A DNA stretch of 64,000 nt from a virus (Duplodnaviria > Heunggongvirae > Uroviricota > Caudoviricetes), in the IMG/VR virus record IMGVR_UViG_3300022661_000085, positions 12,191 to 76,190 of that record; one strand, written 5' to 3'. Below are positions 22,430-63,800 of this stretch, one piece after another. The notes beneath the pieces are model-generated. The model saw nothing but the letters and a program-made list of their open reading frames with translations, ran no database searches and was not told the origin of the DNA. A program made the position numbers and the translations under genes. Position 1 is the first letter of the stretch. Every line of letters begins with the position of its first letter.

Positions 22430-22442
22430 AAATAAGCAAGGA

Positions 22443-23280: not shown

Positions 23281-23357
23281 TGGCTCCCCCTGTAGGGATC
23301 GAACCTACGACATCGCGGTTAACAGCCGCGTGCTCTGCCTAACTGAGCTAAAGGGGA
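23281..23357 (-). tRNA. tRNA-Asn (anticodon GUU), CCA encoded
   Basis: Minus-strand cloverleaf. 5' UCCCCUU.., anticodon loop CUGUUAA, 3' AGGGGGA-G-CCA. Confidence 0.7.
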
Positions 23358-23363
23358 ATGTAT

Positions 23364-23439
23364 TGGTTGCGGAGACTGGACTCGAACCAGCGACCTCTGA
23401 CTTATGAGGACAGCGAGCTACCATCTGCTCTACCCCGCA
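23364..23439 (-). tRNA. tRNA-Met (anticodon CAU; could be an Ile-lysidine or initiator type), CCA encoded
   Basis: Minus-strand cloverleaf. 5' UGCGGGG.., anticodon loop CUCAUAA, T-arm GCUGGUUCGAGUCCAGU, 3' CUCCGCA-A-CCA. Confidence 0.65.
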
Positions 23440-45700: not shown

Positions 45701-45904
45701 ATGAAAAAGTACATCAATTTGAGGACTTTTATGTCTCTCTTGTATCTTTTGACATTCATCTTCCTCGCGGTTTTGATGAATCACTTCCCGCAAGCTCTTT
45801 CTGCGGAGCCAACTATTCTCGGAGCAATTCTCTGCGGAACGAATATCGGCATGGCAACGGTGCTTTTCATCGATGCAATTCGATCATCCAAAGAAAAGAA
45901 GTGA
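45701..45904 (+). CDS. small membrane protein (67 aa)
   Basis: Two hydrophobic helices. Confidence 0.3.
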   Translation: MKKYINLRTFMSLLYLLTFIFLAVLMNHFPQALSAEPTILGAILCGTNIGMATVLFIDAIRSSKEKK

Positions 45905-45911
45905 CATCGAT

Positions 45912-46385
45912 ATGAAATATTTTTTGATTGCCGATACACACTTCGGTCACGAAAACATCATCCGATACTGCAACCGCCCATTCAGGACGGCTGAGGAAAT
46001 GAACAGAGTGCTTATCCAAAATTGGAATAGCACCGTATCCAAAAATGACACTGTGTTTGTTCTTGGTGATTTTGCTTTCGGCAAGGAGTTGATTAAGGAA
46101 ATCGCTCCGAAGTTGAACGGAAGGAAAATCTTAATCAAGGGCAACCACGATGACTATAGAAATGAATACTATCGCAACTGTGGTTTTGAGGAAGTAAGCG
46201 AATACCCAATCTTGTTTGGCTTCTATCTGTTAAGCCACGAGCCGTTACAGCTCAGCGAAACCACACCGTATTTCAATTACTATGGTCACGTCCACAACGA
46301 TACAAAGTATGTGGACAACCTAACAAGCCGATGCGTAAGCGTCGAAAGAATTGGCTATAAGCCATTCTGCTTTTACGAAACATAA
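45912..46385 (+). CDS. calcineurin-like metallophosphoesterase
   Basis: Start is 'MKYFLIADTHFGHENI' (the D-x-H motif), followed by 'VLGDFAFG' and 'KGNHDD'. Confidence 0.65.
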   Translation: MKYFLIADTHFGHENIIRYCNRPFRTAEEMNRVLIQNWNSTVSKNDTVFVLGDFAFGKELIKEIAPKLNGRKILIKGNHDDYRNEYYRNCGFEEVSEYPILFGFYLLSHEPLQLSETTPYFNYYGHVHNDTKYVDNLTSRCVSVERIGYKPFCFYET

Positions 46386-46404
46386 AAAAAGTTTAAATAG
46401 GTAT

Positions 46405-46470
46405 GTCGGATCCCCTTATACATAATCCGAGCTTTTGATTACATCAAAAGTGCCTCGATGTTGAAAGTGA
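46405..46470 (+). repeat. conserved two-hairpin intergenic element, copy D (longer stem, same TTACA loop)
   Basis: Reads TCGGAT-(13 nt)-ATCCGA, then GCTTTTGATTACATCAAAAG, then TGCCTCGATGTTGAAAGTG. Confidence 0.5.
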
Positions 46471-46579
46471 ATTCAAATAAAAACAGTCGCAAAGCGACTG
46501 TTTGGAGGCTGGTTTTATAACGAATGCACCTCCAAGAGGAGCATTCCAAACGGTATTTAAACGGAATAGGAGAGGTACT

Positions 46580-46990
46580 ATGGACAACGAAAAGATTGTT
46601 GATATGAACGAAGAAGAAATGGACGAACAGTTCATTGAGGTAAAGCTTGATATCCTGCTCACCAATGAGGATATCGATGATATTATGTGTGCTGCTCTTG
46701 AGGGCGGTATCAACTATTGGTGCGGCAAAGCAAAGGTTGTCGGCAAGTACCTTGGCGATTATGCAAGCGAGCAGATCTCTCGCGGCGGCACTCTGAAGCT
46801 GTACGATGGTGAGTCTGGTGAAGAGTTCGAACTCACAAAAGAAAAGTTCATCAAAGGACTTATCAAACACTTGGAAGATGGTCGTTCTGACCTTATCTCC
46901 CAAGGAATGATTGATACCGGCGCCCTTGATGCTTGTGACGCCGATGCAATCATTCAGTATGCGCTCTTCGACGAAGTAGTTTATGGATGA
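46580..46990 (+). CDS. acidic hypothetical protein (136 aa)
   Basis: Start is 'MDNEKIV' after a GGAGAGGTACT RBS. Confidence 0.35.
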   Translation: MDNEKIVDMNEEEMDEQFIEVKLDILLTNEDIDDIMCAALEGGINYWCGKAKVVGKYLGDYASEQISRGGTLKLYDGESGEEFELTKEKFIKGLIKHLEDGRSDLISQGMIDTGALDACDADAIIQYALFDEVVYG

Positions 46991-46999
46991 GGTGACGGT

Positions 47000-47914
47000 A
47001 TGGCAAAATTCATAATGCTTATCGGTCTTCCGGGCTCGGGCAAATCCTATATCGCAGAAAAGACGAAAGCGAAAATGAAGAGTGTTCTCGTAGTTTCGTC
47101 AGACGAAATCCGAAAGGAATTGTTTGGCGACGAAAACGACCAGCAAACCCCCGAAAAAGTGTTTGAAACAATGAGAGAGCGAACCTTCAACGCACTCAAG
47201 GACGGCATCGATGTCATCTACGATGCCACAAACATCAGGAGAAAGTACCGCAGAGCACTTCTCCGTTCGCTTCCTAACTGTGAAAAAATTGCTTACGTCG
47301 TATGGTCGAGATATGACCTCTGCGTAAAGAGAGATGCGGAAAGAAGTCGCACTGTTGGCGAGCCCGTAATCAAAAAGATGCTTCTTGGATTTCAACCTCC
47401 GTTCTACGATGAGGGATGGGATAAGATTGAGGTTGACCACAACGGTGAACTTTATACTCAGTCCGACTACGAGGATTGGATGAACTGTGACCACGATAAT
47501 CCGCATCACAATAACACCGTCGGGGTTCACACTCAGCAGGTTTGCGATGAAGCATTCAAGCTCTCTTATGACGCTTTGAATGACGAAAAGTATAGCACGG
47601 CATTGACAAATATGATTGTTCTCTTCGCCGCCGCTATGCACGACACCGGCAAGAAATTTACCAAGACTTTCACCAACTTCAAGGGTGAAACCACCGAGAT
47701 TGCGCACTACTACGACCATCACAACGTAAGTAGTTACTATACTCTCGGTTTTGAAAAGTTGATGACTATGAGCATCGAGGAAAGATTGCTGATTGCTTGG
47801 CTTGTAAACGTACATATGGAGCCGTTCTTCAACAGCAAGTATTACAAAAATCTTAAGCCCGATCTGAAGTCGCTCGTTGATGCGCTTCATTCCTGCGACG
47901 TAAAGGGCGCATAA
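47000..47914 (+). CDS. P-loop polynucleotide-kinase-like domain fused to an HD phosphohydrolase-like domain (RNA end-healing candidate)
   Basis: N-terminal 'MLIGLPGSGKSY' and 'DATNIRRKYR'. C-terminal 'AAAMHDTGKK' and 'HYYDHHNVSSYY', which is an HD-type His/Asp pattern. Confidence 0.55.
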   Translation: MAKFIMLIGLPGSGKSYIAEKTKAKMKSVLVVSSDEIRKELFGDENDQQTPEKVFETMRERTFNALKDGIDVIYDATNIRRKYRRALLRSLPNCEKIAYVVWSRYDLCVKRDAERSRTVGEPVIKKMLLGFQPPFYDEGWDKIEVDHNGELYTQSDYEDWMNCDHDNPHHNNTVGVHTQQVCDEAFKLSYDALNDEKYSTALTNMIVLFAAAMHDTGKKFTKTFTNFKGETTEIAHYYDHHNVSSYYTLGFEKLMTMSIEERLLIAWLVNVHMEPFFNSKYYKNLKPDLKSLVDALHSCDVKGA

Positions 47915-47928
47915 AGAAAGGAGAGCAT

Positions 47929-48747
47929 ATGTTTGACCGCGAAACTTACATAAGAAGTAACTTGCAGGCACACTACAACGAAGCTGTTCAAAGCGGGCAA
48001 ATGGTGTTCTGCTTGATACTTCAAGGAAGCCAAAATTACGGGCTTGATATCAACAATGAAAAATATCAGAGCGATATAGACACGAAGGCTATTATCCTGC
48101 CTTCATTCGAGGATTTCTGTAGAGGCTCTGCTCCTATATCCACTACCCACATTCGAGAGAACAATGAGCACATTGATTTCAAGGATGTGAGAGTGATGTT
48201 TGAAACATTTAAAAAACAGAACGTTAATTTTGTTGAGGTTCTCTTCTCTGACTACTACATCGTAGCTGAAGGCTATGAGTCTTTCTGGGAAGATCTCCGT
48301 GCTCTTGCAGAAGATTTAACTCACTGTCACCCTACTCAAACACTGAGAACGATGGCGGGACTCAGCCTTGAAAAGCGGAAGGCGTTATGTCACCCATACC
48401 CTACCATCAAGGACAAGATCGATAAGTACGGATACGATGGCAAACAGCTACATCACATCATACGCATTAACGATTTCATCAAGAGATACGTTGCGGGAGA
48501 GTCGTTCAAGGCGTGCTTACATCCCACCCCTACAATAAGAGCTAAGCTGGATGCCGCAAAGTTGAACGAATATTCCTTGGAAGATGCGTTAAGGATGGCA
48601 GACGAGTTTTGCGATGAAACCAATGCAATCAGAAATGCTTATATGGAGAAGTATGGCAACGATTGCGATGGCAGAGCGTATAAGAAGCTCGATGAAATCA
48701 AAGTTGAACTACTACGCAAGTGGTTCAGAAAGGAATTGTCAATATGA
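47929..48747 (+). CDS. Pol-beta superfamily nucleotidyltransferase
   Basis: 'LILQGSQNYGLDINNEKYQSDIDTKAII', a GS..(D/E)xD NTase signature. Confidence 0.55.
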   Translation: MFDRETYIRSNLQAHYNEAVQSGQMVFCLILQGSQNYGLDINNEKYQSDIDTKAIILPSFEDFCRGSAPISTTHIRENNEHIDFKDVRVMFETFKKQNVNFVEVLFSDYYIVAEGYESFWEDLRALAEDLTHCHPTQTLRTMAGLSLEKRKALCHPYPTIKDKIDKYGYDGKQLHHIIRINDFIKRYVAGESFKACLHPTPTIRAKLDAAKLNEYSLEDALRMADEFCDETNAIRNAYMEKYGNDCDGRAYKKLDEIKVELLRKWFRKELSI

Positions 48748-49541
48748 AATATTATGTTGTTTCTGACATTCACGGATTCTACTCACAACTCGTGAAAACT
48801 TTGACTAAAGCAGGGTTCTTTGATGAGACCGAACCTCACAAGCTTATCGTTTGCGGAGATATGATGGACAGAGGAAATGAAGCTATCAAAATGCAAGAGT
48901 TTATGCTCAAGCTTCTTGAGGAAGACAAGCTTATATTTGTTAGGGGTAATCACGAAGATCTACTCATTTCAATGCTGGGCGACCTCAGAAAATCTCGTTT
49001 TGGATTTTACTTCGGCACCTCTCATCACGTATCTAATGGGACGTGGAGCACTGCTCTTCAGCTCACGGGGGTAAAGGATGATGATGCCACCGAGAACTAC
49101 GAAGACTTCATCAAGAAGGTAAAGGCGACTGGTTTTTATAAGAAGCTCATTCCTGCGAGCGTGGACTATTACGAAACCCCCAACTACATATTTGTCCACG
49201 GTTGGATACCCTGTTTCACAAACAAGATGCCTGATTGGCACACCAGAGGAAGGTCTTATGCTTACAATCCCAGATGGAGAGATGCAAGCAAAGAAGATTG
49301 GAATACCGCCAGATGGTTTAACGGTATGCAGGTTGCTGAGGAGCATCACATAATTGAACCCAACAAGAAAATTGTTTGCGGACACTGGCACGCATCTTTC
49401 GGTCACTGCGCTTACGAAAAGAAATGCACGGAGTTTGGTGAGAGTGCAGATTTCACTCCATATTATGGCAACGGTGTGATTGCAATCGACGGATGCACCG
49501 CGTACACAAATGAGGTTAATTGCCTTGTCATTGAGGATTAA
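48744..49541 (+). CDS. PPP-family (lambda-phosphatase-like) metallophosphatase
   Basis: 'YYVVSDIHG', 'CGDMMDRGNE', 'RGNHEDL'. Start is the internal Met 'MKYYVV'. Confidence 0.7.
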   Translation: MKYYVVSDIHGFYSQLVKTLTKAGFFDETEPHKLIVCGDMMDRGNEAIKMQEFMLKLLEEDKLIFVRGNHEDLLISMLGDLRKSRFGFYFGTSHHVSNGTWSTALQLTGVKDDDATENYEDFIKKVKATGFYKKLIPASVDYYETPNYIFVHGWIPCFTNKMPDWHTRGRSYAYNPRWRDASKEDWNTARWFNGMQVAEEHHIIEPNKKIVCGHWHASFGHCAYEKKCTEFGESADFTPYYGNGVIAIDGCTAYTNEVNCLVIED

Positions 49542-49546
49542 ATACT

Positions 49547-50017
49547 GTGTCGAAGCGCACATATATTTTATCAAATAAATCAGCTATTGAAGATTGGATC
49601 TTTTTAAATAAGAGCAAAGCTTGGATTGCCAGACAATTGCATTGCAAAATTGACACCCTAAACCGATATCTAAAAGAAATGAATATATCATATTCTGGAA
49701 ACCAAAGTGGCAAAGGGGTTAAGACATATGTTCCTTCGAGGTATATGCCATTTCAAGAATATATATCAAAATCCAAAAACGTTCATAGCGATCATATCCG
49801 AAAGAAACTATTAAGAGATGGATTAAAAAAGCACGAATGTGAACGATGTCATAATACTCATTGGAACGGACTTTTGATACCTCTCGAAGTACACCATAAA
49901 GACGGGGATAAGTCTAACAATGACTTGTCTAACTTGATGATGTTATGCCCCAACTGCCACGCTCAAACCGATTTTTACAGAGGCAGAAACAAGAATTCTG
50001 GGCGTATGGCGAAATAG
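49547..50017 (+). CDS. HNH endonuclease
   Basis: 'CERCHNTHWNG...EVHHKDGDKSNNDLSNLMMLCPNCH'. Confidence 0.75.
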   Translation: MSKRTYILSNKSAIEDWIFLNKSKAWIARQLHCKIDTLNRYLKEMNISYSGNQSGKGVKTYVPSRYMPFQEYISKSKNVHSDHIRKKLLRDGLKKHECERCHNTHWNGLLIPLEVHHKDGDKSNNDLSNLMMLCPNCHAQTDFYRGRNKNSGRMAK

Positions 50018-50084
50018 GCAGAACGCTACGGTCTTAAAAACCGTTGAATAAGATTCGTGCGGGTTCGAATCCCGCTATGCCCAC
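50014..50084 (+). pseudogene. degenerate tRNA-like element (T-arm + acceptor-like 3' strand + CCA, no D-arm)
   Basis: ..ACGGT-CTTAAAA-ACCGT..GCGGGTTCGAATCCCGC-TATGCCC-A-CCA. The 5' acceptor strand has 2 mismatches. Confidence 0.3.
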
Positions 50085-50597
50085 CAGATCGGTGCTACGA
50101 AGCCTGAATGCTGGCATTGAAAAGGAGAACAAACCAGCGGACGTTGGGATGAAAGCAGCAGTAGTAAATGGAGTTAGATGAACAGCCGATAAAGTGCGTG
50201 GGATGTTCCCCGCAAGCTACTCACCCATATGGAGAGATTTCCTGCAAAAGGTTGAAATTAGTAATCGTAAAACCCACGGCTTATTTCAATTTGCCGAAGA
50301 AATAAGCAACGAGATGGCGCACCACATACGCTCAAACCGCTAAGACTTTCATAAAACAGAACTTAGCAAGCTTAGAATGTGGAATTTTCAAGGGAAGGCA
50401 TTGGTGGGTTCTCTAAATTGCCACTGATGAGAAAGCCGAACAATAGGATTTAGTTCCGAAAAAGGCACTGGTGGAACAAACAGTACGACCTTGAAGCTAA
50501 GGTGTTCACCGACGGGACAGCCCCGCAACGGTTAAATAAGAGGCGAGCTAAAATTTCTCGGACGGCTTGAAGTACAAAAGCCGTAAACACATCATAC

Positions 50598-50687
50598 GGA
50601 GAGTTAAGCATAGTTGGCACTGCAGCGGTTTGCTAAACCGTTCGCCGTTTATTCGGCGCAGAGGTTCGAGTCCTCTACTCTCCGCCA
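50598..50687 (+). tRNA. tRNA-Ser (GCU), CCA encoded
   Basis: GGAGAGT..anticodon loop UUGCUAA..long variable arm CGCCG-TTTA-TTCGGCG..T-arm..ACTCTCC-G-CCA. Confidence 0.7.
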
Positions 50688-50689
50688 AT

Positions 50690-50761
50690 GTAAGTGTGGT
50701 GTAACGGTAACACGGCGGTCTCCAAAACCGTAAGATGGGGGTTCGAATCCCTCCGCTTATG
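50690..50761 (+). tRNA. tRNA-Trp (CCA anticodon)
   Basis: GTAAGTG..D-arm GTGT/ACAC..anticodon loop CUCCAAA..T-arm GGGGGTTCGAATCCCTC. Confidence 0.6.
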
Positions 50762-50762
50762 C

Positions 50763-50839
50763 GGGACGTTAGCTCAGTTGGTTAGAGCCACCGGCTCATA
50801 ACCGGTAGGTCTAAGGTTCGAGTCCTTAACGTCCCACCA
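50763..50839 (+). tRNA. tRNA-Met (CAU), CCA encoded
   Basis: GGGACGT-TA-GCTCAGTTGGTTAGAGC..ACCGG-CUCAUAA-CCGGT..ACGTCCC-A-CCA. Confidence 0.7.
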
Positions 50840-50987
50840 GCCCTGTTCATTCAAAAAGTTTCCTTGCAGGGGTTGTTAAAGGAAGCCTTCCGCTACGGTT
50901 AATGGTTCAAATTCTACCGGCAATAAAACAATAGAAGCCTCGCAAGGTGCAAGCGTTCCAATAAGGTGTTCAGCGGATTACATATAT

Positions 50988-51063
50988 GCTGGTGTAGCTC
51001 AGTTGGTAGAGCAGTTGATTTGTAATCAACCGGTCGTGGGTTCGAGTCCCACCATCAGCTCCA
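50988..51063 (+). tRNA. tRNA-Thr (UGU), CCA encoded
   Basis: GCTGGTG..GTTGA-UUUGUAA-TCAAC..GTGGGTTCGAGTCCCAC-CATCAGC-T-CCA. Confidence 0.7.
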
Positions 51064-51555
51064 AAAGTGTTGCAGATGTGAATATAGGCGGTGACAATGA
51101 CGCGACGAAAGTCGTGGTGCCAATATCGTGAGCACAATAACACGGGAGCTGCTCCTATGGCTGAAGGCTCCTTGCAACATTCATATAGATGAGAAGAAAG
51201 CAACTCTCTGCTGGCGGTGAAATGATATATCTTCCAGCCGTACTAAAACGTATTAGGCATTTGTATGACGTTAAGCCCTCTACCGACACGTTAGATCGGG
51301 GTAAGCACATCAGAGAGGATATAGTACTACGAGAGTGCAGATTACATACTTAGCGGGCATTTGGTAACTTAGCCGGTGGTGTGCATCGGTTAGCGAACTG
51401 CAAGAGCGTATAGGTTACTGAAGCGGCGCGGCAATCGTTTGCAAGCAAATAACTTTAATGGCTTGAGGAGTGGACGAGGTGTGGCTACGGAGACCAACCA
51501 ACGGTGTTGAGCGTAAGTAGAGTTGTTAACCTTGTTTGCTTGTGAACATTGTTAC
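51064..51555 (+). other. ~490-nt ORF-free segment inside the tRNA array (uncharacterised ncRNA candidate)
   Basis: No ORF with an RBS on either strand. Flanked by tRNA-Thr and tRNA-Ser. Confidence 0.3.
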
Positions 51556-51642
51556 GGAGAGTTAGCCTAATGGTAAGGCAGCAGACTTGAAATCTGCCGT
51601 CACCGAAAGGTGTTCAGGGTTCGAGTCCCTGACTCTCCGCCA
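51556..51642 (+). tRNA. tRNA-Ser (UGA), CCA encoded
   Basis: GGAGAGT..GCAGA-CUUGAAA-TCTGC..long variable arm..ACTCTCC-G-CCA. Confidence 0.7.
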
Positions 51643-51645
51643 TAT

Positions 51646-51729
51646 GCCAGAGTGGCGGAATTGGCAGACGCACCAGACTCAAAATCTGGCGGTGGCAACA
51701 CCGTGTGGGTTCAAGTCCCATCTTTGGTA
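51646..51729 (+). tRNA. tRNA-Leu (CAA), CCA encoded
   Basis: GCCAGAG..CCAGA-CUCAAAA-TCTGG..long variable arm..CTTTGGT-A-CCA. Confidence 0.65.
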
Positions 51730-51881
51730 CCAAGCGCTACGGCGGTCGGCGTCCTGAAAAGGTTAAAGATCGCCCCACATAAAATCTATGCACCTGTACC
51801 CTTGAAAAACTCGTATCAGGTATTTTACCGTGGATAAGCAGGTGCGTGTGAAATAAAAGGGTAAGAGAATAAGCACAACAC

Positions 51882-51956
51882 TGGGGTATCGCCAAGCGGT
51901 AAGGCATAGGACTTTGACTCCTACATTCGTTGGTTCGAATCCATCTACCCCAGCCA
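51882..51956 (+). tRNA. tRNA-Gln (UUG), CCA encoded
   Basis: TGGGGTA..TAGGA-CUUUGAC-TCCTA..TACCCCA-G-CCA. Confidence 0.7.
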
Positions 51957-52206
51957 AAGAAAGACACACACAGCAACTTTCAAATTAAATTAACAGGATA
52001 GTAAGTATAATGCTATGGGACGTGAGCTCCTAAAACTCACTGATTACTGGTTTAAGAACCAGATGACTGTCGGCAAAGTCGAATGATTGAGAATTAAACA
52101 TTCTCTGTTGCTCTTACGATGTAGCCTGTAGTAAGAAGCGACGTCGCAAGGCTATATCCTCACCCAACGTCATTGTCCGGGAAGGATGGCGGTGTGTCTT
52201 GAATAT

Positions 52207-52282
52207 GTTCGCGTAGCTCAGCCGGTAGAGCACCTGACTTTTAATCAGGGAGTCGGAGGTTCGAGTCCTCTCGCGAACACCA
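52207..52282 (+). tRNA. tRNA-Lys (UUU), CCA encoded
   Basis: GTTCGCG-TA-GCTCAGCCGGTAGAGC..CCTGA-CUUUUAA-TCAGG..CGCGAAC-A-CCA. Confidence 0.7.
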
Positions 52283-52285
52283 TTT

Positions 52286-52360
52286 GTGGGTATCGTCTAA
52301 CGGCTAAGACACCTGCCTTCCAAGCAGGGGATGCGAGTTCGATTCTCGTTACTCACTCCA
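52286..52360 (+). tRNA. tRNA-Gly (UCC), CCA encoded
   Basis: GTGGGTA..CCTGC-CUUCCAA-GCAGG..TACTCAC-T-CCA. Confidence 0.7.
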
Positions 52361-52361
52361 C

Positions 52362-52444
52362 GCCCGTGTGGTGGAATTGGTAGACACGCCAGACTTAGGA
52401 TCTGGTTCGTAAGAGTGAGAGTTCGAGTCTCTCCACGGGTACCA
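52362..52444 (+). tRNA. tRNA-Leu (UAG), CCA encoded
   Basis: GCCCGTG..CCAGA-CUUAGGA-TCTGG..long variable arm..CACGGGT-A-CCA. Confidence 0.7.
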
Positions 52445-52446
52445 AT

Positions 52447-52521
52447 CGGGGCATAGTTCAATGGTAGAGCTCTCGCTTTGGGAGCGAGATGTTGTGGGTT
52501 CGAGTCCCGTTGCTCCGACCA
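52447..52521 (+). tRNA. tRNA-Pro (UGG), CCA encoded
   Basis: CGGGGCA-TA-GTTCAATGGTAGAGC..CTCGC-UUUGGGA-GCGAG..TGCTCCG-A-CCA. Confidence 0.7.
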
Positions 52522-52547: not shown

Positions 52548-53057
52548 ATGAAGAAAGCTTTAATCGTCATCGATATGCAGAACGACTTTGTGACTGGTGC
52601 TTTGGCAAATCCCGCCGCAGAAGCAATCGTAAAGCCTATCGCAAAAAAAGTTAAGTCATTCGATGGCACAATTATCGCAACCAGAGACACTCACGATGCA
52701 GATTATCTGAAATCTCCCGAGGGTGTTAAGCTTCCCGTAGAGCATTGCATCAAGAACACCGACGGATGGAAGGTTGTTCCCGAGATTGAAGCTGCTATTA
52801 AAACAAAGCAGGATTTCAGATATCTCGATAAGCCCACCTTCGGTATGCCCAGAGATTGGAATCTCGGTACTTACGACGAGGTTGAGGTTGTAGGAACCTG
52901 CACAGACATCTGCGTTGTAAGCAACGTACTTCTCTTGAAGGCGCTCTACCCTGCTCTTTCCATCAAAGTTCACGCAAATCTTTGTGCCGGTCTTTCCGAG
53001 GAAAAGCATCTCGCAGCATTGGAAGTAATGCGTAGCTGTCAGGTCGAGGTAGTGTAA
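52548..53057 (+). CDS. pncA: isochorismatase-family nicotinamidase
   Basis: 'ALIVIDMQNDF', catalytic Cys context 'GTCTDICVVSN', 169 aa. Its stop overlaps the start of the next gene (TAATG). Confidence 0.7.
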   Translation: MKKALIVIDMQNDFVTGALANPAAEAIVKPIAKKVKSFDGTIIATRDTHDADYLKSPEGVKLPVEHCIKNTDGWKVVPEIEAAIKTKQDFRYLDKPTFGMPRDWNLGTYDEVEVVGTCTDICVVSNVLLLKALYPALSIKVHANLCAGLSEEKHLAALEVMRSCQVEVV

Positions 53058-53869
53058 TGATTAAACTAAACGACCACGTTATCGAACAGGATTGCTTTGG
53101 TGACGGCACTTTAAAGTGTGCCCTGCCGCCGATCAATTCCGCAGGCAGTCTTATCGTTATCACTTGGTGTTACGATAACGATGCAGAGTTATTTACTCTC
53201 TGGAGCCTTGTTTGCTATATCAGGGACAGATATCCCGACATTACGCTGAACTTGGCTATGCCGTACATTCCTCACGCAAGACAAGACCGTGAGGTAAGCC
53301 ATAGACTATTCACCTTGAAGTATTTTGCAAAGGCAATCAATGCTATGAACTTCCGCAAGGTGTTCGTGCTGGATCCCCACTCGGATGTTTCTCTCGCGGT
53401 ACTTGACAGAGTAGTACCTATGCGCTCCATCTTTTATCCCGATACCGATCTCACGAGGAATAGCGGTGATGTTTATACGGTTATGTACCCTGATGCCGGT
53501 GCGGCTAAGAAGTACGGCTCTCAAGAAGATGTCGCTAATCCTATCATCGGAAACAAGCATCGCAACGAAGAAGGAAGAATCGACGGATATGAGCTTCTTA
53601 ACTTTGTTGAGGGGACTAAGAACGTCATCATCCGTGATGACATTTGTAGTTATGGTGGCACATTTGTTGCCGCCGCAAAAGAACTGAAGAAGCGCGGTGT
53701 CGAGAAGATTATTCTCTACATTTCGCACTGTGAAAACAATATTTTGAAAGGCGAAGTTCTTGACTGGGTTGATATGGTGTATACAACCGACAGTATCTGC
53801 ACTGTCCAGCACCCCAAAATTCAGATTATCAAGAGCTTTAGAGAAGGTAGAGTCAATGTACCGAATTAA
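53057..53869 (+). CDS. ribose-phosphate pyrophosphokinase (Prs) homolog; candidate ADP-ribose pyrophosphokinase of a phage NAD+ reconstitution pathway
   Basis: 'VLDPHSD' and the PRPP-binding loop 'IIRDDICSYGGTF'. It overlaps the downstream NAMPT-like gene by 14 nt. Confidence 0.6.
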   Translation: MIKLNDHVIEQDCFGDGTLKCALPPINSAGSLIVITWCYDNDAELFTLWSLVCYIRDRYPDITLNLAMPYIPHARQDREVSHRLFTLKYFAKAINAMNFRKVFVLDPHSDVSLAVLDRVVPMRSIFYPDTDLTRNSGDVYTVMYPDAGAAKKYGSQEDVANPIIGNKHRNEEGRIDGYELLNFVEGTKNVIIRDDICSYGGTFVAAAKELKKRGVEKIILYISHCENNILKGEVLDWVDMVYTTDSICTVQHPKIQIIKSFREGRVNVPN

Positions 53870-55361
53870 CCCTTTGCTTGAAAGCGATTTCTACAAGCAG
53901 GTTCACTGGAACCAGTACCCAAAGAACGTTACAAAGGTTGTGAGCTACTTCACGCCTCGTATGAGCCGCCTTAAGAATGTGGGAGAAAACCACATCATTA
54001 TGTTCGGTTTACAGTCGTTCATCAAGGAGTTCTTAATCGAGGACTTCAACGAGTTCTTCTTCGCTCGCTCAAAGGAAGAGGTTATGGCAGAGTACAAGCA
54101 CTTGATGGATAACACCCTCGGTGCAGGGCTCTACGGAGAGGAAAGAATTGCAGAGCTTCACGAGCTCGGTTATCTCCCTCTCGAAATTAAGGCACTCCCC
54201 GAAGGAACGAGAGTCCCCGTAGGAGTTCCTATGTTTGAGATCAGCAACACACATCCCAAGTTTGCTTGGCTCACCAATGCGATTGAGTCGGTAATCAGTT
54301 GCGAGATGTGGCACGCTATGATTTCTGCGAATGTCGGATATATGTACCGTCAGATCGTAAACAAGTATTACGATTTGAGTTGTGATGACAATATCCCCCG
54401 CAGAAAAGCTCTTGGTGACTTCTCGATGAGAGGTCAGGAGTCCAAGAGAAGCGCATACAAATCATCTGCAGCGTGGCTTCTCTCTTTCGTAAACACCGCT
54501 ACCGTTCCCGCAATCGACTATCTTGAGAGATATTATGGTTGCGATTGCTCAAAGGAAGAGGTTGGCTTTGGCGCCGTTTCCACCGAGCACTCCGTAATGT
54601 GTAGCAATTTCGCGGTTGACGGCGATGAAATCACAATGATTAAGCGCTTGCTCACCGAAATTTACCCCAACACCTCTTTCAGTATGGTCAGCGATAGCTA
54701 CGACTACTGGAATCTCGTAGACAATCTTCTTCCCTTGTGCAAGAACGAGATTATGAATCACAACGGATGTCTTCTCGTGAGAGGCGACTCCGGCGATCCT
54801 GTAGAGGTCGTAACGCAAACCGTGTTCCACCTTTGGAACATCTTCGGCGGAACTGTTAATTCGAAGGGCTACAAGGTTCTCGATCCCCACGTCAAGGCAA
54901 TCTATGGCGATAGCATTACACCACAGAGAGCCAAAGCAATCTACAGTATCCTCGTTGAAAACGGGTTTGCCGCAAGCAATGTTTCTCTTGGCGTCGGAAG
55001 CTTTTCGATGCAGTGCTTGGAAACTATCGATTTATTCAACGGAGATCCCTTGACCACATACAACCCCTACACCAGAGACACCTTTGGCATTGCCATCAAG
55101 GCAACTTATGCTGAAGACGAGAACGGTGCGCCTATCCCGATTTTTAAGAACCCCAAGGAATCTTCCTTCAAGAAGTCCCACAAGGGTTGTGTAATCGTTA
55201 AGGAGCACGAGGGCGAGCTTGTGGCAGAAGATATGCACACCTACCTCGAAACCGTTGAGGACGAAAACAATCTTATGGAGTTTGTTTTCTGCGACGGTCA
55301 GATGGAGAAGGAATATTCCCTCAAGGAAATCCGCGACAGACTCCACGGAGGTAAGTTCTGA
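53856..55361 (+). CDS. nicotinamide phosphoribosyltransferase (NAMPT/NadV) family protein
   Basis: Start is 'MYRINPLLESDFYKQVHWNQYP', which matches the NAMPT N-terminal signature (NPLL..D.YK..H..QYP), after a GAGAAGG RBS. About 500 aa. Confidence 0.7.
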   Translation: MYRINPLLESDFYKQVHWNQYPKNVTKVVSYFTPRMSRLKNVGENHIIMFGLQSFIKEFLIEDFNEFFFARSKEEVMAEYKHLMDNTLGAGLYGEERIAELHELGYLPLEIKALPEGTRVPVGVPMFEISNTHPKFAWLTNAIESVISCEMWHAMISANVGYMYRQIVNKYYDLSCDDNIPRRKALGDFSMRGQESKRSAYKSSAAWLLSFVNTATVPAIDYLERYYGCDCSKEEVGFGAVSTEHSVMCSNFAVDGDEITMIKRLLTEIYPNTSFSMVSDSYDYWNLVDNLLPLCKNEIMNHNGCLLVRGDSGDPVEVVTQTVFHLWNIFGGTVNSKGYKVLDPHVKAIYGDSITPQRAKAIYSILVENGFAASNVSLGVGSFSMQCLETIDLFNGDPLTTYNPYTRDTFGIAIKATYAEDENGAPIPIFKNPKESSFKKSHKGCVIVKEHEGELVAEDMHTYLETVEDENNLMEFVFCDGQMEKEYSLKEIRDRLHGGKF

Positions 55362-55831
55362 TGGTTACATATCACCAAGGAGATTTAATCAAAAGCTCCT
55401 GCAATGTGATCTGCCATCAAACCAACTGTATGGGAGTTATGGGCTCGGGTATTGCAAAGACAATTCGAGCCCTTTATCCCGACTCTTACAAAGCGCTCAG
55501 AGAACGGTTCGAGAAAGGCGAGGCTAAGCTCGGCGAAATCGATATCGTTCCTGTGGAAACAGAAAATGGCTCTCTGCGTTTCGTCATCAATATGTATTCG
55601 CAGAGAGAATATCTTCCGCGCGGTATTCAACATACCAACTACGAAGCATTTAAGAGTTGCCTTGCGATGATTAAAAGCTTCTGCCATATCAAGTCTATCT
55701 ACAAGATTGGCTTCCCTGCTAAGATTGGATGCGGACTTGCTGGTGGCGACTGGAGTGTTGTCAAAGAGCTTATCGAGGAAGCATTTTCTGAAGATGGCTG
55801 GGACGTTGAGGTTTGGGAACTAAACGTTTAA
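55361..55831 (+). CDS. Macro domain protein (ADP-ribose binding/processing)
   Basis: 'GDL...NVICHQTNCMGVMGSGIAK' and 'GCGLAGG' match the macro-domain Gly-rich loops. Its start overlaps the NAMPT stop. Confidence 0.7.
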   Translation: MVTYHQGDLIKSSCNVICHQTNCMGVMGSGIAKTIRALYPDSYKALRERFEKGEAKLGEIDIVPVETENGSLRFVINMYSQREYLPRGIQHTNYEAFKSCLAMIKSFCHIKSIYKIGFPAKIGCGLAGGDWSVVKELIEEAFSEDGWDVEVWELNV

Positions 55832-55908
55832 CGGAATAATGTTCCGAACAATACCCCGAATAATACCGAACAATACAATCTATTGTTCGGAATGTACGGA
55901 GGCACCAT

Positions 55909-56193
55909 ATGAGAAATCGAGCTTATAGGCGAAGGATGAAAAACAAGAAGGACAATCGCCTTCGCAAAATCATAACAAAGTGCGGTTATATTCCTCACGC
56001 TGGTTACATCGACTGGGATGAGGTTGACGGAGTGTGGCAACCCACAGGCAAATACATTAAGTACCCGAAGAACTCCGACGCACAAAAATACTTAAAAAAG
56101 CAATCCAACCGTAGAGTCAGACGTTCTGCTGACCTTCCTCAAAAAGGGAATGGATATCGCAAACGTTCTGAATACTGGAGGATACTGTATTGA
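55909..56193 (+). CDS. small basic hypothetical protein (94 aa)
   Basis: Arg/Lys-rich ORF. Confidence 0.3.
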   Translation: MRNRAYRRRMKNKKDNRLRKIITKCGYIPHAGYIDWDEVDGVWQPTGKYIKYPKNSDAQKYLKKQSNRRVRRSADLPQKGNGYRKRSEYWRILY

Positions 56194-56208
56194 ATACAAG
56201 GAGCTTTT

Positions 56209-56925
56209 ATGAAAGAAAAACTTACAAAAATCCTCAGTTGGCTTGAGGATTACAAGAATGCTACCAATTGCAAGGGCGTTGTGCTTGGCATTAGCGGTGG
56301 CAAAGACAGCACAGTTGTTGCTATGCTTGCTAAGAAAGTTTGGGGCGACAACGTTGTTGGTGTTATGATGCCCGACGGTGGACAGGTTGACCTCAATGAC
56401 TCCGTCGCTATCTGTAACACGCTGAAAATCCAGAGTGCACTGGTGAATATCGGTGCCATTACAGGGCAAATGATTCACACAATCAATTCCTCTGTTCCCT
56501 TTGCAAACGTAAGTCAGAAGGCAATCACAAACATCCCGCCGAGAATCAGAATGACCACTCTTTACGCCATTGCTCAAAGCTTGGGATACAGAGTTATCGG
56601 CACCGGCAATGCGAGTGAAGCATACATCGGTTGGACGACCAAGTGGGGCGATAGCGCATACGACCTTAACCCCATTTACCATTTGACCTGCACCGAAGTT
56701 GTGGAAATCGGCAAGGAACTTGCGGCAGAGTTCGGGCTTGACCAGAAGTATATCAGCAAAGCTCCATCGGACGGTTTAACAGGAATGACTGACGAGGATA
56801 ACTTCGGATTTACTTATGAGTATCTTGACGGAGTCATCAGAGGTGAAATTGAAAGCACTGAGGCGATCAGCCTTCTCCACGCAATGAGTGCGCACAAAAG
56901 AGCTATGCCCTACACTCTTCAGTAA
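56209..56925 (+). CDS. nadE: NH3-dependent NAD+ synthetase
   Basis: PP-loop 'GISGGKDST', 238 aa. Confidence 0.75.
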   Translation: MKEKLTKILSWLEDYKNATNCKGVVLGISGGKDSTVVAMLAKKVWGDNVVGVMMPDGGQVDLNDSVAICNTLKIQSALVNIGAITGQMIHTINSSVPFANVSQKAITNIPPRIRMTTLYAIAQSLGYRVIGTGNASEAYIGWTTKWGDSAYDLNPIYHLTCTEVVEIGKELAAEFGLDQKYISKAPSDGLTGMTDEDNFGFTYEYLDGVIRGEIESTEAISLLHAMSAHKRAMPYTLQ

Positions 56926-57631: not shown

Positions 57632-58441
57632 ATGAGTAATCGCAAAGATTCTCTCGGAGACAGAATGAAAGAAAATTACGAGAACCGAGCAAAAACTTAC
57701 TTGGTTCGCAGGATGCCTGTAATCATCCGCCTTGACGGTAAGGCATTCCATACATTTACCAGAGGCTTTGATAAGCCTTACGACGAAGTGTTCCACTGGG
57801 CGATGAACGAAACCCTGCGCTTTCTTTGTGAAAACATACAAGGATGTAAATTCGGCTATACACAGTCGGATGAAATTACTCTTTTGCTGACGGATTACGA
57901 CACGCTTACGACCGATGCTTGGTTTGACAACGCAGTCCAGAAGATGTGTAGTGTTTCGGCAAGTATGGCGACTTTGGTATTTAATCAACGTTTACATACC
58001 GCCGTATACAGACACGAAGTATCTGTTTGGCACGACGGTAGTGATACGCCCGTCGATGAAAAACAGAAAAGGCTTCACGATGCTTATGTAAAAGCATATT
58101 GCAAAGGAGCTATGTTCGACTCGCGTTGCTTCAATATCCCTGAAGACGAGGTAGTCAACTGCTTCATTTGGCGTCAGCAGGATGCAACGAGAAATGCAAT
58201 TCAGATGCTTGGACAGTGTAATTTCTCTCACAAAGAATTGAACGGCAAATCCTGTAATGCCATTCAGGATATGCTTATGGAGCAAAAACAAATCAATTTC
58301 AACGATATGCCTACCGCTTTCAAGCGTGGCGTATGTTGCTATAAAAACGAAGAGGGCAAGTGGGTAGTAGATGCTGAACCACCGATCTTTACACAGGATC
58401 GTGAGTATGTTGCCAATCATCTACTTCGCCACGAAGCCTAA
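57632..58441 (+). CDS. Thg1-like protein (tRNA 3'-5' nucleotidyltransferase family, tRNA 5'-end repair)
   Basis: 'RMPVIIRLDGKAFHTFTRGFDKPYDE...GYTQSDEITLLL' matches the Thg1 catalytic-core pattern (RxDG..F..F, D-E). Confidence 0.65.
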   Translation: MSNRKDSLGDRMKENYENRAKTYLVRRMPVIIRLDGKAFHTFTRGFDKPYDEVFHWAMNETLRFLCENIQGCKFGYTQSDEITLLLTDYDTLTTDAWFDNAVQKMCSVSASMATLVFNQRLHTAVYRHEVSVWHDGSDTPVDEKQKRLHDAYVKAYCKGAMFDSRCFNIPEDEVVNCFIWRQQDATRNAIQMLGQCNFSHKELNGKSCNAIQDMLMEQKQINFNDMPTAFKRGVCCYKNEEGKWVVDAEPPIFTQDREYVANHLLRHEA

Positions 58442-60862: not shown

Positions 60863-62002
60863 TTGGTTATGGCAAGAGCTTTAGCTCATGTTGAACAAAT
60901 CGTCTGGAAAAAGCCTATTGAGGGTGCCGACAGGATTGAGCTTGTCGGTGTCCTCGGATGGCAGTGTATCGCCAAAAAGGACGAGTTCCAAGTAGGCGAG
61001 CCGTGCGTTTACATAGAAATCGACAGTATTGTAGACAAGGATAATCCCGACTTTGCTTTCCTCGAAAAGAAGCATTACAAGATTAAGACAATGAAGATGA
61101 AGGGCGTGATTTCTCAGGGAATTGTTTTCCCGATGGGTATTCTTCCCTTCCCGGACTACAACATTGGCGACGACGTTACTTCGGTTTTGAAAATCACCCA
61201 GATTGAGGACGATGTACCGAAGGCTAAACCCGTAGACCAGATGACTCGTTTCAAACAGCAACATAAAAAACTATATAACAACAAGCTTATCAGGTATATG
61301 ATGAAATATACTTGGTTCAGAAAGCTTATGTTCAAGTTCTTCATCCCTAAAAAGAAAGCGAAAGGCTTCCCCGATTGGATCGTGAAGACTGACGAAACTC
61401 GTTTGCAGAATATGCCGTTCGTTCTTGAGACTTTCAAGGACAAGCCGATGGTTGTTACCGAGAAGCTTGACGGTACATCAACGAGCTTCGGTCTAAGAAA
61501 AGAAAAGAAAAGAAAATACGACTTCGCGGTGTGCTCTCGTAACGTTCGACAGGCTGACATCAATCAAAAGTGTTTCTACGAAGATAATGTCTATCACGAG
61601 ATGTCGAATAAGTACAACATCAAGAGTGTCTTGATGACGATACTTGAGAGATATAACGCGACGACAGTAGTGCTTCAAGGAGAAACAATCGGCGAGTCAA
61701 TCCAGAAGAATAAGTACGGTTTGACCGGCAGAGACTTCTATGCATTCAACCTTGTTGTTGACGGCAAAAAGATTGATAGCACAGAGGCTATCAACATCGT
61801 TAAGGAATTCGGTATCAAGTGGGTGCCAATCCTCGATGAAAACTTTATCTTGCTTCCAACCGTAAACGATATGATTCAGTTTGCGGACGGTAAATCAGTT
61901 CTTTGCGACACGCTGCGCGAAGGACTGGTAATCCGAGATCACGACAACACAACAAGTTTTAAATGCATCAGCAACCAGTTCCTCCTTATGCACAATCTAT
62001 AA
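60863..62002 (+). CDS. ATP-dependent nucleic-acid ligase family protein (KxDG motif), probable RNA ligase
   Basis: Motif I 'VVTEKLDGTSTSF'. 379 aa. Context is RNA-repair genes. Confidence 0.5.
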   Translation: MVMARALAHVEQIVWKKPIEGADRIELVGVLGWQCIAKKDEFQVGEPCVYIEIDSIVDKDNPDFAFLEKKHYKIKTMKMKGVISQGIVFPMGILPFPDYNIGDDVTSVLKITQIEDDVPKAKPVDQMTRFKQQHKKLYNNKLIRYMMKYTWFRKLMFKFFIPKKKAKGFPDWIVKTDETRLQNMPFVLETFKDKPMVVTEKLDGTSTSFGLRKEKKRKYDFAVCSRNVRQADINQKCFYEDNVYHEMSNKYNIKSVLMTILERYNATTVVLQGETIGESIQKNKYGLTGRDFYAFNLVVDGKKIDSTEAINIVKEFGIKWVPILDENFILLPTVNDMIQFADGKSVLCDTLREGLVIRDHDNTTSFKCISNQFLLMHNL

Positions 62003-62012: not shown

Positions 62013-62237
62013 GTGAACGATAAGAGAAGAAAGAAAATCAAAGACGTTATTAAGAGATTGAACGATTGCAAAGACGATCTTGAATCAATCAAGGAAGACG
62101 AGGATGAGGCAAGGGACAACATACCTGAGCCTCTTCAAAACGGCGACACTTATTGCGAGTCAGAGGAGTGTAGTGATAAAATAGAAGATGCGATCTCTGA
62201 CATCAAGGATGTCGTCGATAGTTTAGAAAACATTTAA
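62013..62237 (+). CDS. small acidic protein (possible antitoxin for the downstream MazF-like gene)
   Basis: 74 aa, Asp/Glu-rich, immediately upstream of the toxin gene. Confidence 0.3.
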   Translation: MNDKRRKKIKDVIKRLNDCKDDLESIKEDEDEARDNIPEPLQNGDTYCESEECSDKIEDAISDIKDVVDSLENI

Positions 62238-62254
62238 AACAGGCGGTATCAAGG

Positions 62255-62599
62255 ATGCATCGAGGCGAAATATATTTGGTAGACTTGAGCACTCACGTTG
62301 GCTCCGAGCAATCAGGAATACGCCCCGCTTTAATCGTGCAGAATGAACGGGGGAACGCTTGTTCCCCCACCACAATCATCTGCCCTTTGACTTCTAAACA
62401 GAAGCCGTCAATGGACACACACGTTCCGTTGACACCAAGTGATTGTGGTATTATCAAGGAATCAACTGTTTTGTGCGAGCAAATCAGAGTGATTGATAAA
62501 TCCCGCATTAGAAGAAAAGTAGGCGAGGTCATCAACATTCAAAAGATTGAAGACATCAATCAAAAATTGATGATATCTATAGGAATAGGAGTCCAATAA
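62255..62599 (+). CDS. MazF/PemK-family endoribonuclease toxin
   Basis: 'GEIYLVDLSTHVGSEQSGIRPALIV' is the canonical PemK/MazF N-terminal motif. 114 aa. Confidence 0.7.
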   Translation: MHRGEIYLVDLSTHVGSEQSGIRPALIVQNERGNACSPTTIICPLTSKQKPSMDTHVPLTPSDCGIIKESTVLCEQIRVIDKSRIRRKVGEVINIQKIEDINQKLMISIGIGVQ

Positions 62600-62809
62600 G
62601 TGGCTACATATCAACCATTAACTAAGATAATTACCGACGATGAGGGTAATCAGATGGTTACTTGTCGGTATTACGGTACTGAAGAGTGCCGTAAGATACA
62701 TACGCCAAGCAGATGCAGTGACTGCCCTATGCTGGCAGCCATATTTAATCAACTTCGAGTATTCGAAGAAATTTATACAGAGGAGGTAAACAAAACCAAT
62801 GCAAAATGA
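62600..62809 (+). CDS. small hypothetical protein (69 aa)
   Basis: Cys-containing ORF. Its start directly abuts the toxin stop. Confidence 0.3.
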   Translation: MATYQPLTKIITDDEGNQMVTCRYYGTEECRKIHTPSRCSDCPMLAAIFNQLRVFEEIYTEEVNKTNAK

Positions 62810-63800
62810 CGTTGAGGTTACTCTTGCCCCGCATTTAGCCGAAGCAATTCACCGAATGTACGAAACAGAAGCTCAAACTATTGCCCGGCTTGAACGAGAA
62901 AAAGAGCAATTAGCAAACGACCTAAGCACTGAGAGAAGATTGCGCTACGATGCAGAGCGCAAAGTTGAAGAGCTTGAGCAAACAATACACCAGCTCAAAA
63001 CAGTTATCCCGAAAAAACGTCGTCTGAAAGCAACTGGCGAGCACGAGGAATATACTGATTTTAAGAGCGATGGCAAGCGAAAGGCTCACGCGGCGGAGCC
63101 GATTCGGTCTTACGAAGACTTCGTTGCGATACAAAATTACTTCCTCGAACGTAAAAGAATTCGCGACTGGATGATGTGGACTGTAGGTGTTAGCCTCGGT
63201 TTAAGAATTTCAGACTTACTCTCTTTGAAAATAAGTGCCTTTCTCAACGAGGACAAAACCTTCAGAGAAAGGATGTACGTAATAGAACAAAAAACCAGTA
63301 AAATAAATGACTGTTTAATCACGGAGTCCGTGATAGATGCTATTACAAAATACTTCGATTCCATCCAATGGAAATTCGATCTGGACGATTACCTCTTCAA
63401 GAGCAACAAGACGAAGGGGAAAATGTATGAGGAATATGGGTGGAAGATTTTGTCCGATGCGGGCAAAGCACTAAAACTCCCGATCGTAATTGGCTCACAC
63501 ACGATGAGAAAGAGTTTTGCTAACATCGCTGCCTGTGTAGATAAATCCAGCATTGATATGAACGCCATTACCAAGATCCAAGGTTTGCTTAACCATAGCG
63601 ACCAGAGGGTTACAATGAGGTATCTCGGCACGTATCAAGCGATGTTCGACAGGGCTCGTGTATCAGTGAGTGATTTCGTTCTCGGAAGAACAGACGTGCA
63701 TGACCTAATCGCAGGAAACAATTACACCATAGACGACATTGTCCTCAAGCTTGATGCTTTGGAGAGTAAAATGTCAGAAAAAGAAACGACAGGAGATTAA
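62799..63800 (+). CDS. tyrosine recombinase/integrase family protein with N-terminal coiled-coil
   Basis: C-terminal 'GSHTMRKSFANIAA...LLNHSDQRVTMRYLGTYQ' matches the H-x-x-R ... Y catalytic pattern. Confidence 0.65.
   Translation: MQNDVEVTLAPHLAEAIHRMYETEAQTIARLEREKEQLANDLSTERRLRYDAERKVEELEQTIHQLKTVIPKKRRLKATGEHEEYTDFKSDGKRKAHAAEPIRSYEDFVAIQNYFLERKRIRDWMMWTVGVSLGLRISDLLSLKISAFLNEDKTFRERMYVIEQKTSKINDCLITESVIDAITKYFDSIQWKFDLDDYLFKSNKTKGKMYEEYGWKILSDAGKALKLPIVIGSHTMRKSFANIAACVDKSSIDMNAITKIQGLLNHSDQRVTMRYLGTYQAMFDRARVSVSDFVLGRTDVHDLIAGNNYTIDDIVLKLDALESKMSEKETTGD

Follow-up and report, generated by a model that had tools for sequence, protein, structure and literature searches.

A NARP1-like phage gene cluster predicted to rebuild NAD+ by way of nicotinic acid

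The gene cluster described here lies on a 64,000-nt stretch of DNA (the window; positions 12,191-76,190) of the IMG/VR virus record IMGVR_UViG_3300022661_000085, a member of the Caudoviricetes. It occupies positions 52548-56925 on the + strand and encodes, in order, a PncA-type nicotinamidase, an Adps-type homolog of Prs, a Namat-type homolog of NAMPT, a macro domain protein, a small basic protein (orf94), and the NAD synthetase NadE, all co-oriented and tightly packed. Its core, Adps–Namat–Macro, is an already known kind of system. In NARP1, a two-enzyme phage pathway for rebuilding nicotinamide adenine dinucleotide (NAD+), Adps (annotated as Prs) converts ADP-ribose (ADPR) into ADPR-pyrophosphate (ADPR-PP), and Namat (annotated as NAMPT) converts ADPR-PP and nicotinamide to NAD+ (Osterman et al. 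2024, bioRxiv 10.1101/2024.02.11.579819). NARP1-AP adds the macro domain enzyme Adpp, which is present in 15% of NARP1 phages and converts ADPR-1''-phosphate (ADPR-1''-P) to ADPR, overcoming the aRES defence (bioRxiv 10.64898/2026.01.28.702374). The presence of PncA and NadE, together with an altered pyridine pocket in the transferase, suggests that the window cluster is probably a deamidated form of NARP1-AP, a single route that would rebuild NAD+ via nicotinic acid.

The proposed pathway is read from sequence and gene context, and all five of its enzymatic steps are predicted, above all nicotinate specificity and the use of ADPR-PP. Where needed, the macro protein would strip the 1''-phosphate from ADPR-1''-P to give ADPR, which Adps would pyrophosphorylate to ADPR-PP. 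PncA would turn released nicotinamide into nicotinate, and the variant Namat would join nicotinate, not nicotinamide, to ADPR-PP, giving nicotinic acid adenine dinucleotide (NaAD) directly, in a pocket where the amide-binding position has changed from Asp to Ala, the residue opposite from Ala to Ser, and polar or basic residues have been added nearby. NadE would finally amidate NaAD to NAD+. Adps and the Namat variant would thereby replace PncB and NadD, using ADP-ribose left by NAD+-cleaving defence enzymes. A more detailed version, for which the balance tips just past even, holds that Namats of the clade with Ala or Ser at position 215 act as nicotinate ADP-ribose transferases (nicotinate + ADPR-PP → NaAD + pyrophosphate) within a four-step NAD+ recycling pathway with PncA, Adps, and NadE. 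In the same version, this pathway would bypass PncB and NadD and be controlled by NrtR in gut Clostridia, whose phages would have acquired it, often with a macro phosphatase, to undo NAD+-depleting immunity.

The transferase (53856..55361, + strand, 501 aa; NAMPT_N and NAPRTase domains; phrog_448, 1e-163) belongs to the Namat clade by sequence and fold. Its alignment scores are 378 bits to SpβL1 Namat (9w5x), 311 bits to the H. ducreyi NadV enzyme HdNadV (9ke8), and 175 bits to human NAMPT. Its AlphaFold model (pLDDT 87) has 9w5x and 9w5w as top Foldseek matches, with a template-modelling (TM) score of 0.87 to 9w5x. An ordinary Nampt was ruled out, as the protein is far closer to Namat and the Nampt motifs GSGGG/GMGGG and HDFGYRG are absent. 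The motif DFSMRG was dropped as a Namat marker because the true Nampt HdNadV also has it; only R40 and F392 discriminate, and HdNadV carries E and Q at these positions. A preliminary description of the window, made from its letters, had already taken the Prs/NAMPT pair to be of the NAD+ reconstitution kind, an assignment borne out by the closer match to Namat than to human NAMPT and by the Adps motifs described below.

The pyridine pocket is where the window enzyme departs from its characterized relatives. In crystal structures, the nicotinamide pocket of Namat comprises F189, R192, D215, A242, R306, D13', and Y15'. D215 of SpβL1 Namat, the counterpart of D219 in human NAMPT, hydrogen-bonds the nicotinamide amide, and its replacement by Ala lowers NAD+ synthesis 8-fold (PMC12774641). 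In NAMPT, D219 sets substrate specificity, D219S acts as a substrate switch, D219A is an inactive enzyme, and H191, G217, and A244 are inhibitor-resistance positions. In SpβL1 numbering, the window transferase carries A215, S242, G239, N213, and G187, with the stretch around position 215 reading FVNTATVPA versus FTGTDTIPA in SpβL1 Namat; NTAT is common to all 120 closest database homologs. When 59 variant homologs linked to PncA and NadE were compared with 26 Asp-type homologs from viral contigs, only 3 of 481 columns separated the two sets perfectly, namely D215→A, A242→S, and S239→G. The split is upheld in a larger set of 123 variant and 29 canonical sequences, in which all 123 variants have A215 and S242, and further shifts appear at H187→G/S, G213→N/K/R, and F184→R/K. 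The changed positions map to H191, G217, D219, S241, and A244 of mammalian NAMPT, and the catalytic His245, R306, D308, G360, D361, R40, F392, and T398-R399-D400 are unchanged in both pocket types. These features point to a predicted reaction in which nicotinate and ADPR-PP yield NaAD. Among the 150 nearest 50%-identity representatives, residues 215/242 are D/A in 82, A/S in 31, and S/S in 19, and the variant pocket was counted in 53 of the 150. The Ser215/Ser242 sub-variant mimics NAMPT D219S, and both of its loci with adequate flanks (L248 and L326) carry PncA, Adps, and NadE.

The pocket type is closely tied to gene context. About 330 related loci were surveyed, and context was counted where at least 3.5 kb was available on both sides of the transferase gene. 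On viral contigs, the 55 loci with the Ala (variant) pocket carry PncA in 54, Adps in 53, and NadE in 54 cases; all 19 loci with the Asp (canonical) pocket carry Adps, and none carries PncA or NadE. Variant loci from GTDB genomes (43 loci; PncA 43, Adps 41, NadE 40) and metagenome contigs (40 loci; PncA 40, Adps 38, NadE 38) were counted in the same way, and no PncA or NadE was found beside any Asp-type Namat among the loci sampled. After clustering at 70% identity, NadE accompanies 15 of 16 variant and 0 of 20 canonical representatives (Fisher's exact p ~3e-9), co-occurrence counts that are not independent events because the variant clade is essentially monophyletic. The association of PncA, Adps, and NadE is upheld through at least six gene orders and is maintained to about 35-50% identity within the variant clade. 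Since the Asp→Ala variant co-occurs almost perfectly with PncA and NadE, and the Asp type never does, the cluster is best read as one integrated nicotinate route.

The preliminary description had assigned PncA and NadE to a second, Preiss-Handler-type route. In such a scheme, canonical NARP1 would make NAD+ from nicotinamide and ADPR-PP, and PncA and NadE would independently provide a partial Preiss-Handler aid together with the host's PncB and NadD. All gene families for this are present, NARP1 and NARP1-AP are experimentally established, and the catalytic core of the transferase is intact. However, the amide-binding Asp is Ala in every PncA/NadE-linked homolog, and the same change cripples both Namat and NAMPT. 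A phage PncA would also compete with Namat for nicotinamide, and the lack of PncA and NadE in the sampled Asp-type loci is hard to explain if the two modules are independent. Two parallel routes are therefore quite improbable, and PncA and NadE, which the Asp→Ala variant of Namat tracks, probably do not form a separate pathway.

The module also extends to distant phages. In the code-15 gut phage Phass-1, at ~35% identity, a tRNA array is followed by genes for nicotinamidase, Prs, NAMPT, a hypothetical protein, and a NadE-like protein; the Phass-1 paper is silent on this NAD cluster. The layout of a tRNA array followed by an NAD cluster is common to Phass-1 and the window phage. Although the combination had been described at first as unusually complete, it recurs as a module in phages of gut Clostridia and in bacterial chromosomes, and it is widespread in Clostridia genomes.

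Several related loci show unusual gene structures. A sub-variant on IMG/VR 3300045988 contigs (L039-L043 and L052) carries KTAT and GGFSMLSYMDEFGNVDMFSRD where the usual motifs would stand, and its gene order is PncA-Namat-NadE followed by an adenylosuccinate-synthetase-like gene, with a divergent Adps-like gene ~4 kb downstream. A number of related loci have a split Adps gene or one located 2.5-5 kb away from Namat, and the Namat match often spans at least 1.7 kb or falls into 2-3 pieces, with proteins of 550-1100 aa. Odd Adps or Namat structures of this kind occur in L003, L009, L011, L014, L015, L035, L046, L047, L050, L055, L066, L084, and many of P0121-P0270. The split Adps genes and stretched Namat genes suggest introns, inteins, or homing-endonuclease insertions.

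To judge from its motifs and scores, the Prs homolog (53057..53869, + strand, 270 aa; phrog_619, 3e-60) belongs with Adps proteins rather than with cellular Prs. It reaches 74.7 bits against TIGR01251, for which the cut-off is 113, and falls below every NCBIfam Prs cut-off. Its motifs are DPHS, NKHR, DDICSYGGT, and SHCE. Adps proteins of both locus types share DPHS, DDxC[SD]xGGT, and THCE, whereas E. coli Prs has DLHA, DDMIDTGGT, and THPIFSG. The canonical ribose-5-phosphate residues, which the preliminary description took to mark ordinary NAD salvage, are absent, and the phosphate loop DDMIDTGGT of Prs is replaced by DDICSYGGT. The catalytic lysine (K162 in SpβL1) is kept in NKHR, which aligns with DKRR of E. 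coli and is conserved in both locus types. A hidden Markov model built from Adps of canonical loci gives the window protein 209 bits versus 131 bits for E. coli Prs. The predicted reaction is the conversion of ADP-ribose and ATP to ADPR-pyrophosphate. Purified SpβL1 Adps gave no Prs-type product, and its authors conclude that it is not a Prs (Osterman et al. 2024, bioRxiv 10.1101/2024.02.11.579819).

The capacity of the transferase to use ADPR-PP bears on the same question. Adenine selectivity in Namat depends on a 'selectivity clamp' formed by R40 in the SCL loop and the SCH motif GSXΦXΦXΦTRD. The SCL loop supplies a stacking Arg, Lys, or Tyr (R40 in SpβL1 Namat), and a double mutation of R40 and F392 abolishes function (PMC12774641). 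The window transferase keeps the clamp residues R38 (equivalent to R40), F383 (equivalent to F392), T406, R407, and D408, and the residue aligned to R40 is Arg in 57 of 59 variant homologs. Its SCH motif reads GSFSMQC-[17 aa]-YTRD, in which position 3 (F) and TRD are kept, position 5 is Met, and position 7 is displaced. Across the variant clade, GSFSMQC is followed by an insert of 6-40 residues and then by P[YF]TRD; in the AlphaFold model, the insert (residues 387-404) forms a β-hairpin. Because R38 and F383 are kept, the Adps motifs match those of canonical Adps, and a macro gene is usually adjacent, the ADP-ribose side of the pathway looks intact.

An alternative that leaves ADP-ribose unrecycled is a Preiss-Handler booster based on phosphoribosyl pyrophosphate (PRPP). 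Here, the Prs homolog would make PRPP, the transferase would make nicotinate mononucleotide (NaMN) from nicotinate supplied by PncA, host NadD would adenylate it, and the phage NadE would finish the pathway. The pocket changes fit nicotinate equally well in this scheme, the insert disrupts the SCH clamp, a few variant loci lack Adps, and host NadD is near-universal, leaving a phage copy unneeded. Namat enzymes also accept PRPP in vitro (PMC12774641; bioRxiv 10.1101/2024.02.11.579819). Against it stand the diagnostic non-Prs motifs and sub-threshold Prs family scores of the window Prs homolog, the lack of a Prs-type product from SpβL1 Adps (Osterman et al.), and the conservation in the variant clade of R40 and F392, which are absent from the true Nampt HdNadV. 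In addition, an ADPR-handling, Adpp-like macro gene is usually part of the operon, and phages that run a PRPP-based Preiss-Handler pathway, such as phage G, carry their own PncB and NadD. A PRPP-based route is accordingly unlikely, though it is the alternative to be taken most seriously.

The remaining three enzymes have predicted roles compatible with a nicotinate route. The nicotinamidase (52548..53057, + strand, 169 aa; Pfam Isochorismatase, 3e-19) has the PncA proteins of M. tuberculosis and P. horikoshii as its best PDB relatives. Neither its catalytic residues D9/K95/C122 nor its metal ligands D47/H49/H66 vary among 53 cluster-linked homologs, and its score lies below the NCBIfam PRK11609 cut-off. 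It is predicted to convert nicotinamide to nicotinic acid. PncA homologs occur in 7 of 50,697 GenBank phage records, all from the human gut, and NadE homologs occur in 50 records of the same set. NadE (56209..56925, + strand, 238 aa; NH3-dependent NAD synthetase; TIGR00552, 6.5e-53) scores 179.5 bits against TIGR00552, where the cut-off is 63.65. Its SGGxDS ATP pyrophosphatase P-loop is unchanged across 57 homologs, its closest matches in the PDB are the NadE proteins of P. horikoshii and F. tularensis, and its predicted step leads from NaAD to NAD+.

The macro domain protein (55361..55831, + strand, 156 aa; Pfam Macro, 1e-7; phrog_335 'phosphatase', 9e-44) matches BT1257, the DarG macro domain, Poa1p (6lfu, 6e-14, full length), and TARG1 in profile searches, with the DarG macro domain and BT1257 outscoring Poa1p. 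It is a predicted ADPR-1''-phosphate phosphatase that would feed ADPR to Adps. Its gene fits the published NARP1-AP extension, which the preliminary description does not mention. The macro gene of Bacillus phage FADO was considered as an Adpp reference and proved uninformative, as it does not lie beside the FADO NARP1.

The placement of Adps and Namat in the operon resembles that of a classical pathway. In Lachnotalea glycerini DSM 28816 (L152; NZ_QICS01000001.1, 200456-215910), a 1.04-Mb contig carries the operon pncA–adps–namat(Ala)–nadE(glutamine-dependent)–nrtR. NrtR is an ADP-ribose-responsive regulator of NAD metabolism, and the classical operon of C. acetobutylicum is nrtR-pncA-pncB-nadD-nadE. 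Set side by side, the two operons place Adps and variant Namat where PncB and NadD stand, so that adps–namat appears to occupy the operon slot of pncB–nadD between nicotinate and NaAD. Bacillus phage G encodes PncA, a PncB-type nicotinate phosphoribosyltransferase, NadD, and NadE without Adps. Xanthomonas phage X1 has an Asp-type NadV with an NMNAT, and this NadV keeps the Nampt-type motifs GTDT, HDFGYRG, and GMGGGLLQKV. Pfam scans found no NadD or NMNAT in the window genes between 29 and 64 kb, in related contigs, or in the few scanned genes of L037, L039, and L142. Likewise, no PncB-type nicotinate phosphoribosyltransferase or NadD was found in the + strand genes of the window between 42 and 64 kb or within ±10 kb in related contigs, other parts of the phage genome lying outside the search.

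Because the L. glycerini operon is chromosomal and flanked by ordinary bacterial genes, the module is not phage-specific. This raises the possibility of general NAD+ housekeeping, in which a bacterial ADP-ribose/niacin recycling operon under NrtR control is carried by phages to raise NAD+ supply, whether or not a defence is involved. Such a role is consistent with the chromosomal, NrtR-linked copy, with the wide occurrence of the module in Clostridia genomes, and with the lack of an evident defence target in the window. It concerns the biological role rather than the chemistry and is compatible with the nicotinate route. As an account of the phage copies it has little probability, given that the window module lies amid counter-defence-type genes (a tRNA array, a Pnk-like kinase, an RNA ligase, and Thg1) and that the macro gene, which is tied to aRES evasion, is commoner among phage copies (in 41 of 55 viral variant loci) than among genomic ones (12 of 43).

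Several observations weigh against a nicotinate route that uses ADPR-PP. The SCH clamp is non-canonical, with the residue equivalent to Y394 replaced by Met and Y396 displaced by the β-hairpin insert of 6-40 residues; with the adenine clamp altered in this way, the variant Namat may bind adenine differently and so differ in its use of ADPR-PP. The use of PRPP by Namat in vitro makes the formation of NaMN possible, and the NadE of F. tularensis, among the closest solved relatives of the window enzyme, prefers NaMN. A few variant loci (L037, L130, L140, and L142) have no detectable Adps. The monophyly of the variant clade means that the association with PncA and NadE could stem from one or two ancestral events. 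Finally, any selective advantage of deamidated over canonical NARP1 is hypothetical.

Comparison with known systems clarifies which parts of the cluster are shared and which are distinctive. Like NARP1, it has an adjacent, overlapping pair of an Adps-type Prs homolog and a Namat-clade transferase, the latter with SpβL1 Namat as its best match in sequence and fold and with the catalytic His, the ribose and phosphate contacts, R40, F392, and T398-R399-D400 of Namat conserved. Unlike NARP1, its Namat combines Asp215→Ala and Ala242→Ser with a β-hairpin insert in the SCH motif, the pair comes obligatorily with PncA and NadE, and the predicted product is NaAD rather than NAD+. As in NARP1-AP, a macro gene of the Poa1p/TARG1/DarG clade adjoins Namat; the NARP1-AP order Adps-Adpp-Namat differs from the window order Adps-Namat-Macro, to which PncA and NadE are added. 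With the classical Preiss-Handler pathway the module shares PncA as entry enzyme, NadE as exit enzyme, and, in its bacterial version, the regulator NrtR. It differs in that Adps and the Namat variant replace PncB and NadD, and the adenylyl-ribose part would come from ADP-ribose instead of PRPP and ATP.

Further phage and bacterial systems also bear comparison. NARP2 (NadV/Nampt with NMNAT, as in KVP40 and the Xanthomonas phage X1 locus) likewise involves a NAMPT-family enzyme and phage-encoded rebuilding of NAD+, the latter also being a feature of NARP3 (PnuC and NadR; PMC13464706). Unlike either, the window cluster is without NMNAT, NadR, or PnuC. In the nrtR-prs-nadV operons of bacteria (PMC2330246) and in bacterial homologs of NARP1 (PMC12774641), a second Prs paralog is similarly coupled to a NadV-family gene under NrtR, and the Clostridia chromosomal copy of the window module ends in nrtR just as nrtR-prs-nadV operons carry nrtR. 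The published operons are without PncA or NadE, unlike the window module.

At the level of gene layout, the preliminary description proved accurate in identifying the five enzymes, each of which matches its claimed family far beyond chance, and in placing them as co-oriented, partly overlapping + strand open reading frames. The Prs and NAMPT genes overlap by 14 nt (53856-53869), with the transferase starting at the ATG at 53856, and the PncA/Prs and NAMPT/Macro overlaps are 1 nt each. Omitted from that description was orf94 (55909..56193, + strand, 94 aa), a basic protein with no significant Pfam, PHROG, or NCBIfam family. It is kept in identical copies of the window phage, is neither present nor conserved at the matching position in related clusters, and probably lies outside the NAD pathway. 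At least 24 metagenome contigs encode the exact window Namat protein, and the cluster as a nucleotide query gave zero matches among GenBank phages. In a scan of the sequence, promoter-like sites did not exceed their frequency in shuffled sequence, and sites resembling terminators did so only slightly (13 versus 8.9 ± 2.9); with so little above the shuffled background, the scans do not define operon boundaries. A palindrome at 55866-55890 with a 10-bp stem (CCGAACAATA...TATTGTTCGG) lies in the spacer between Macro and orf94, with related direct repeats just upstream, and may be a regulatory or transcript-end element.

The window phage is siphovirus-like, with a tape measure protein, portal, and large terminase. 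A dense 12-tRNA array (50000-52521) is found immediately upstream of the NAD cluster; together with the tRNAs at 22355-23439 and 35751-35835, this makes 16 in the window. RNA-repair-type genes surround the cluster (45873-49541, 57632-58441, and 60863-62002), encoding two metallophosphatases, a Pnk-like AAA_33 kinase, a Thg1-like tRNA-His guanylyltransferase, and an RNA ligase, a set that looks like a tRNA-repair, counter-nuclease module. An HNH endonuclease gene at 49547-50017 is found in the window and in L169 and is not among the called genes of the otherwise matching L168 and L170, a pattern suggestive of insertion by a mobile homing endonuclease. Further upstream, a reverse transcriptase gene (RVT_1, 464 aa; 41996-43390), which may belong to a retron, a DGR, or a group II intron, is followed by an RNase H gene (43908-44345), and a 505-aa protein (36159-37676) with DUF2828, DUF7788, and a weak VWA match is encoded in the vicinity of a lone tRNA-Tyr gene; L039, too, has a protein with DUF2828 and DUF7788 near its NAD cluster. 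Downstream, in the block at 62013-63800, a MazF/PemK toxin gene comes after a 74-aa open reading frame (a possible antitoxin) and before a phage integrase gene, which points to a temperate phage. The same block follows the cluster in L166-L170.

No earlier account of the nicotinate-type variant, or of the NaAD-forming reaction predicted for it, seems to exist. In literature searches, none of the papers found connected NARP1 or Namat with nicotinic acid, PncA, or NadE; the NARP1, NARP1-AP, and RyDEP papers make no mention of these three, nor do they figure in a 2022 survey of viral NAD+ systems. The only paper found to contain both 'NARP1' and 'nicotinic' is that on NARP3 (PMC13464706).

If the proposed pathway is correct, it would represent a fourth chemical logic of phage NAD+ reconstitution beside NARP1, NARP2, and NARP3, and would involve a new reaction in which NaAD is made directly from nicotinate and ADPR-pyrophosphate. 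It would also explain why nicotinamidase and NAD synthetase, which are very rare in cultured phages, accompany a NARP1-like core in gut phages. Many genes of Clostridia and the gut virome that are labelled "NAMPT", "nicotinate phosphoribosyltransferase", or "Prs" would then be wrongly named, and the combination of Ser at position 242 with either Ala or Ser at 215 would offer a simple marker for splitting the pathway types in annotation pipelines and anti-defence finders.

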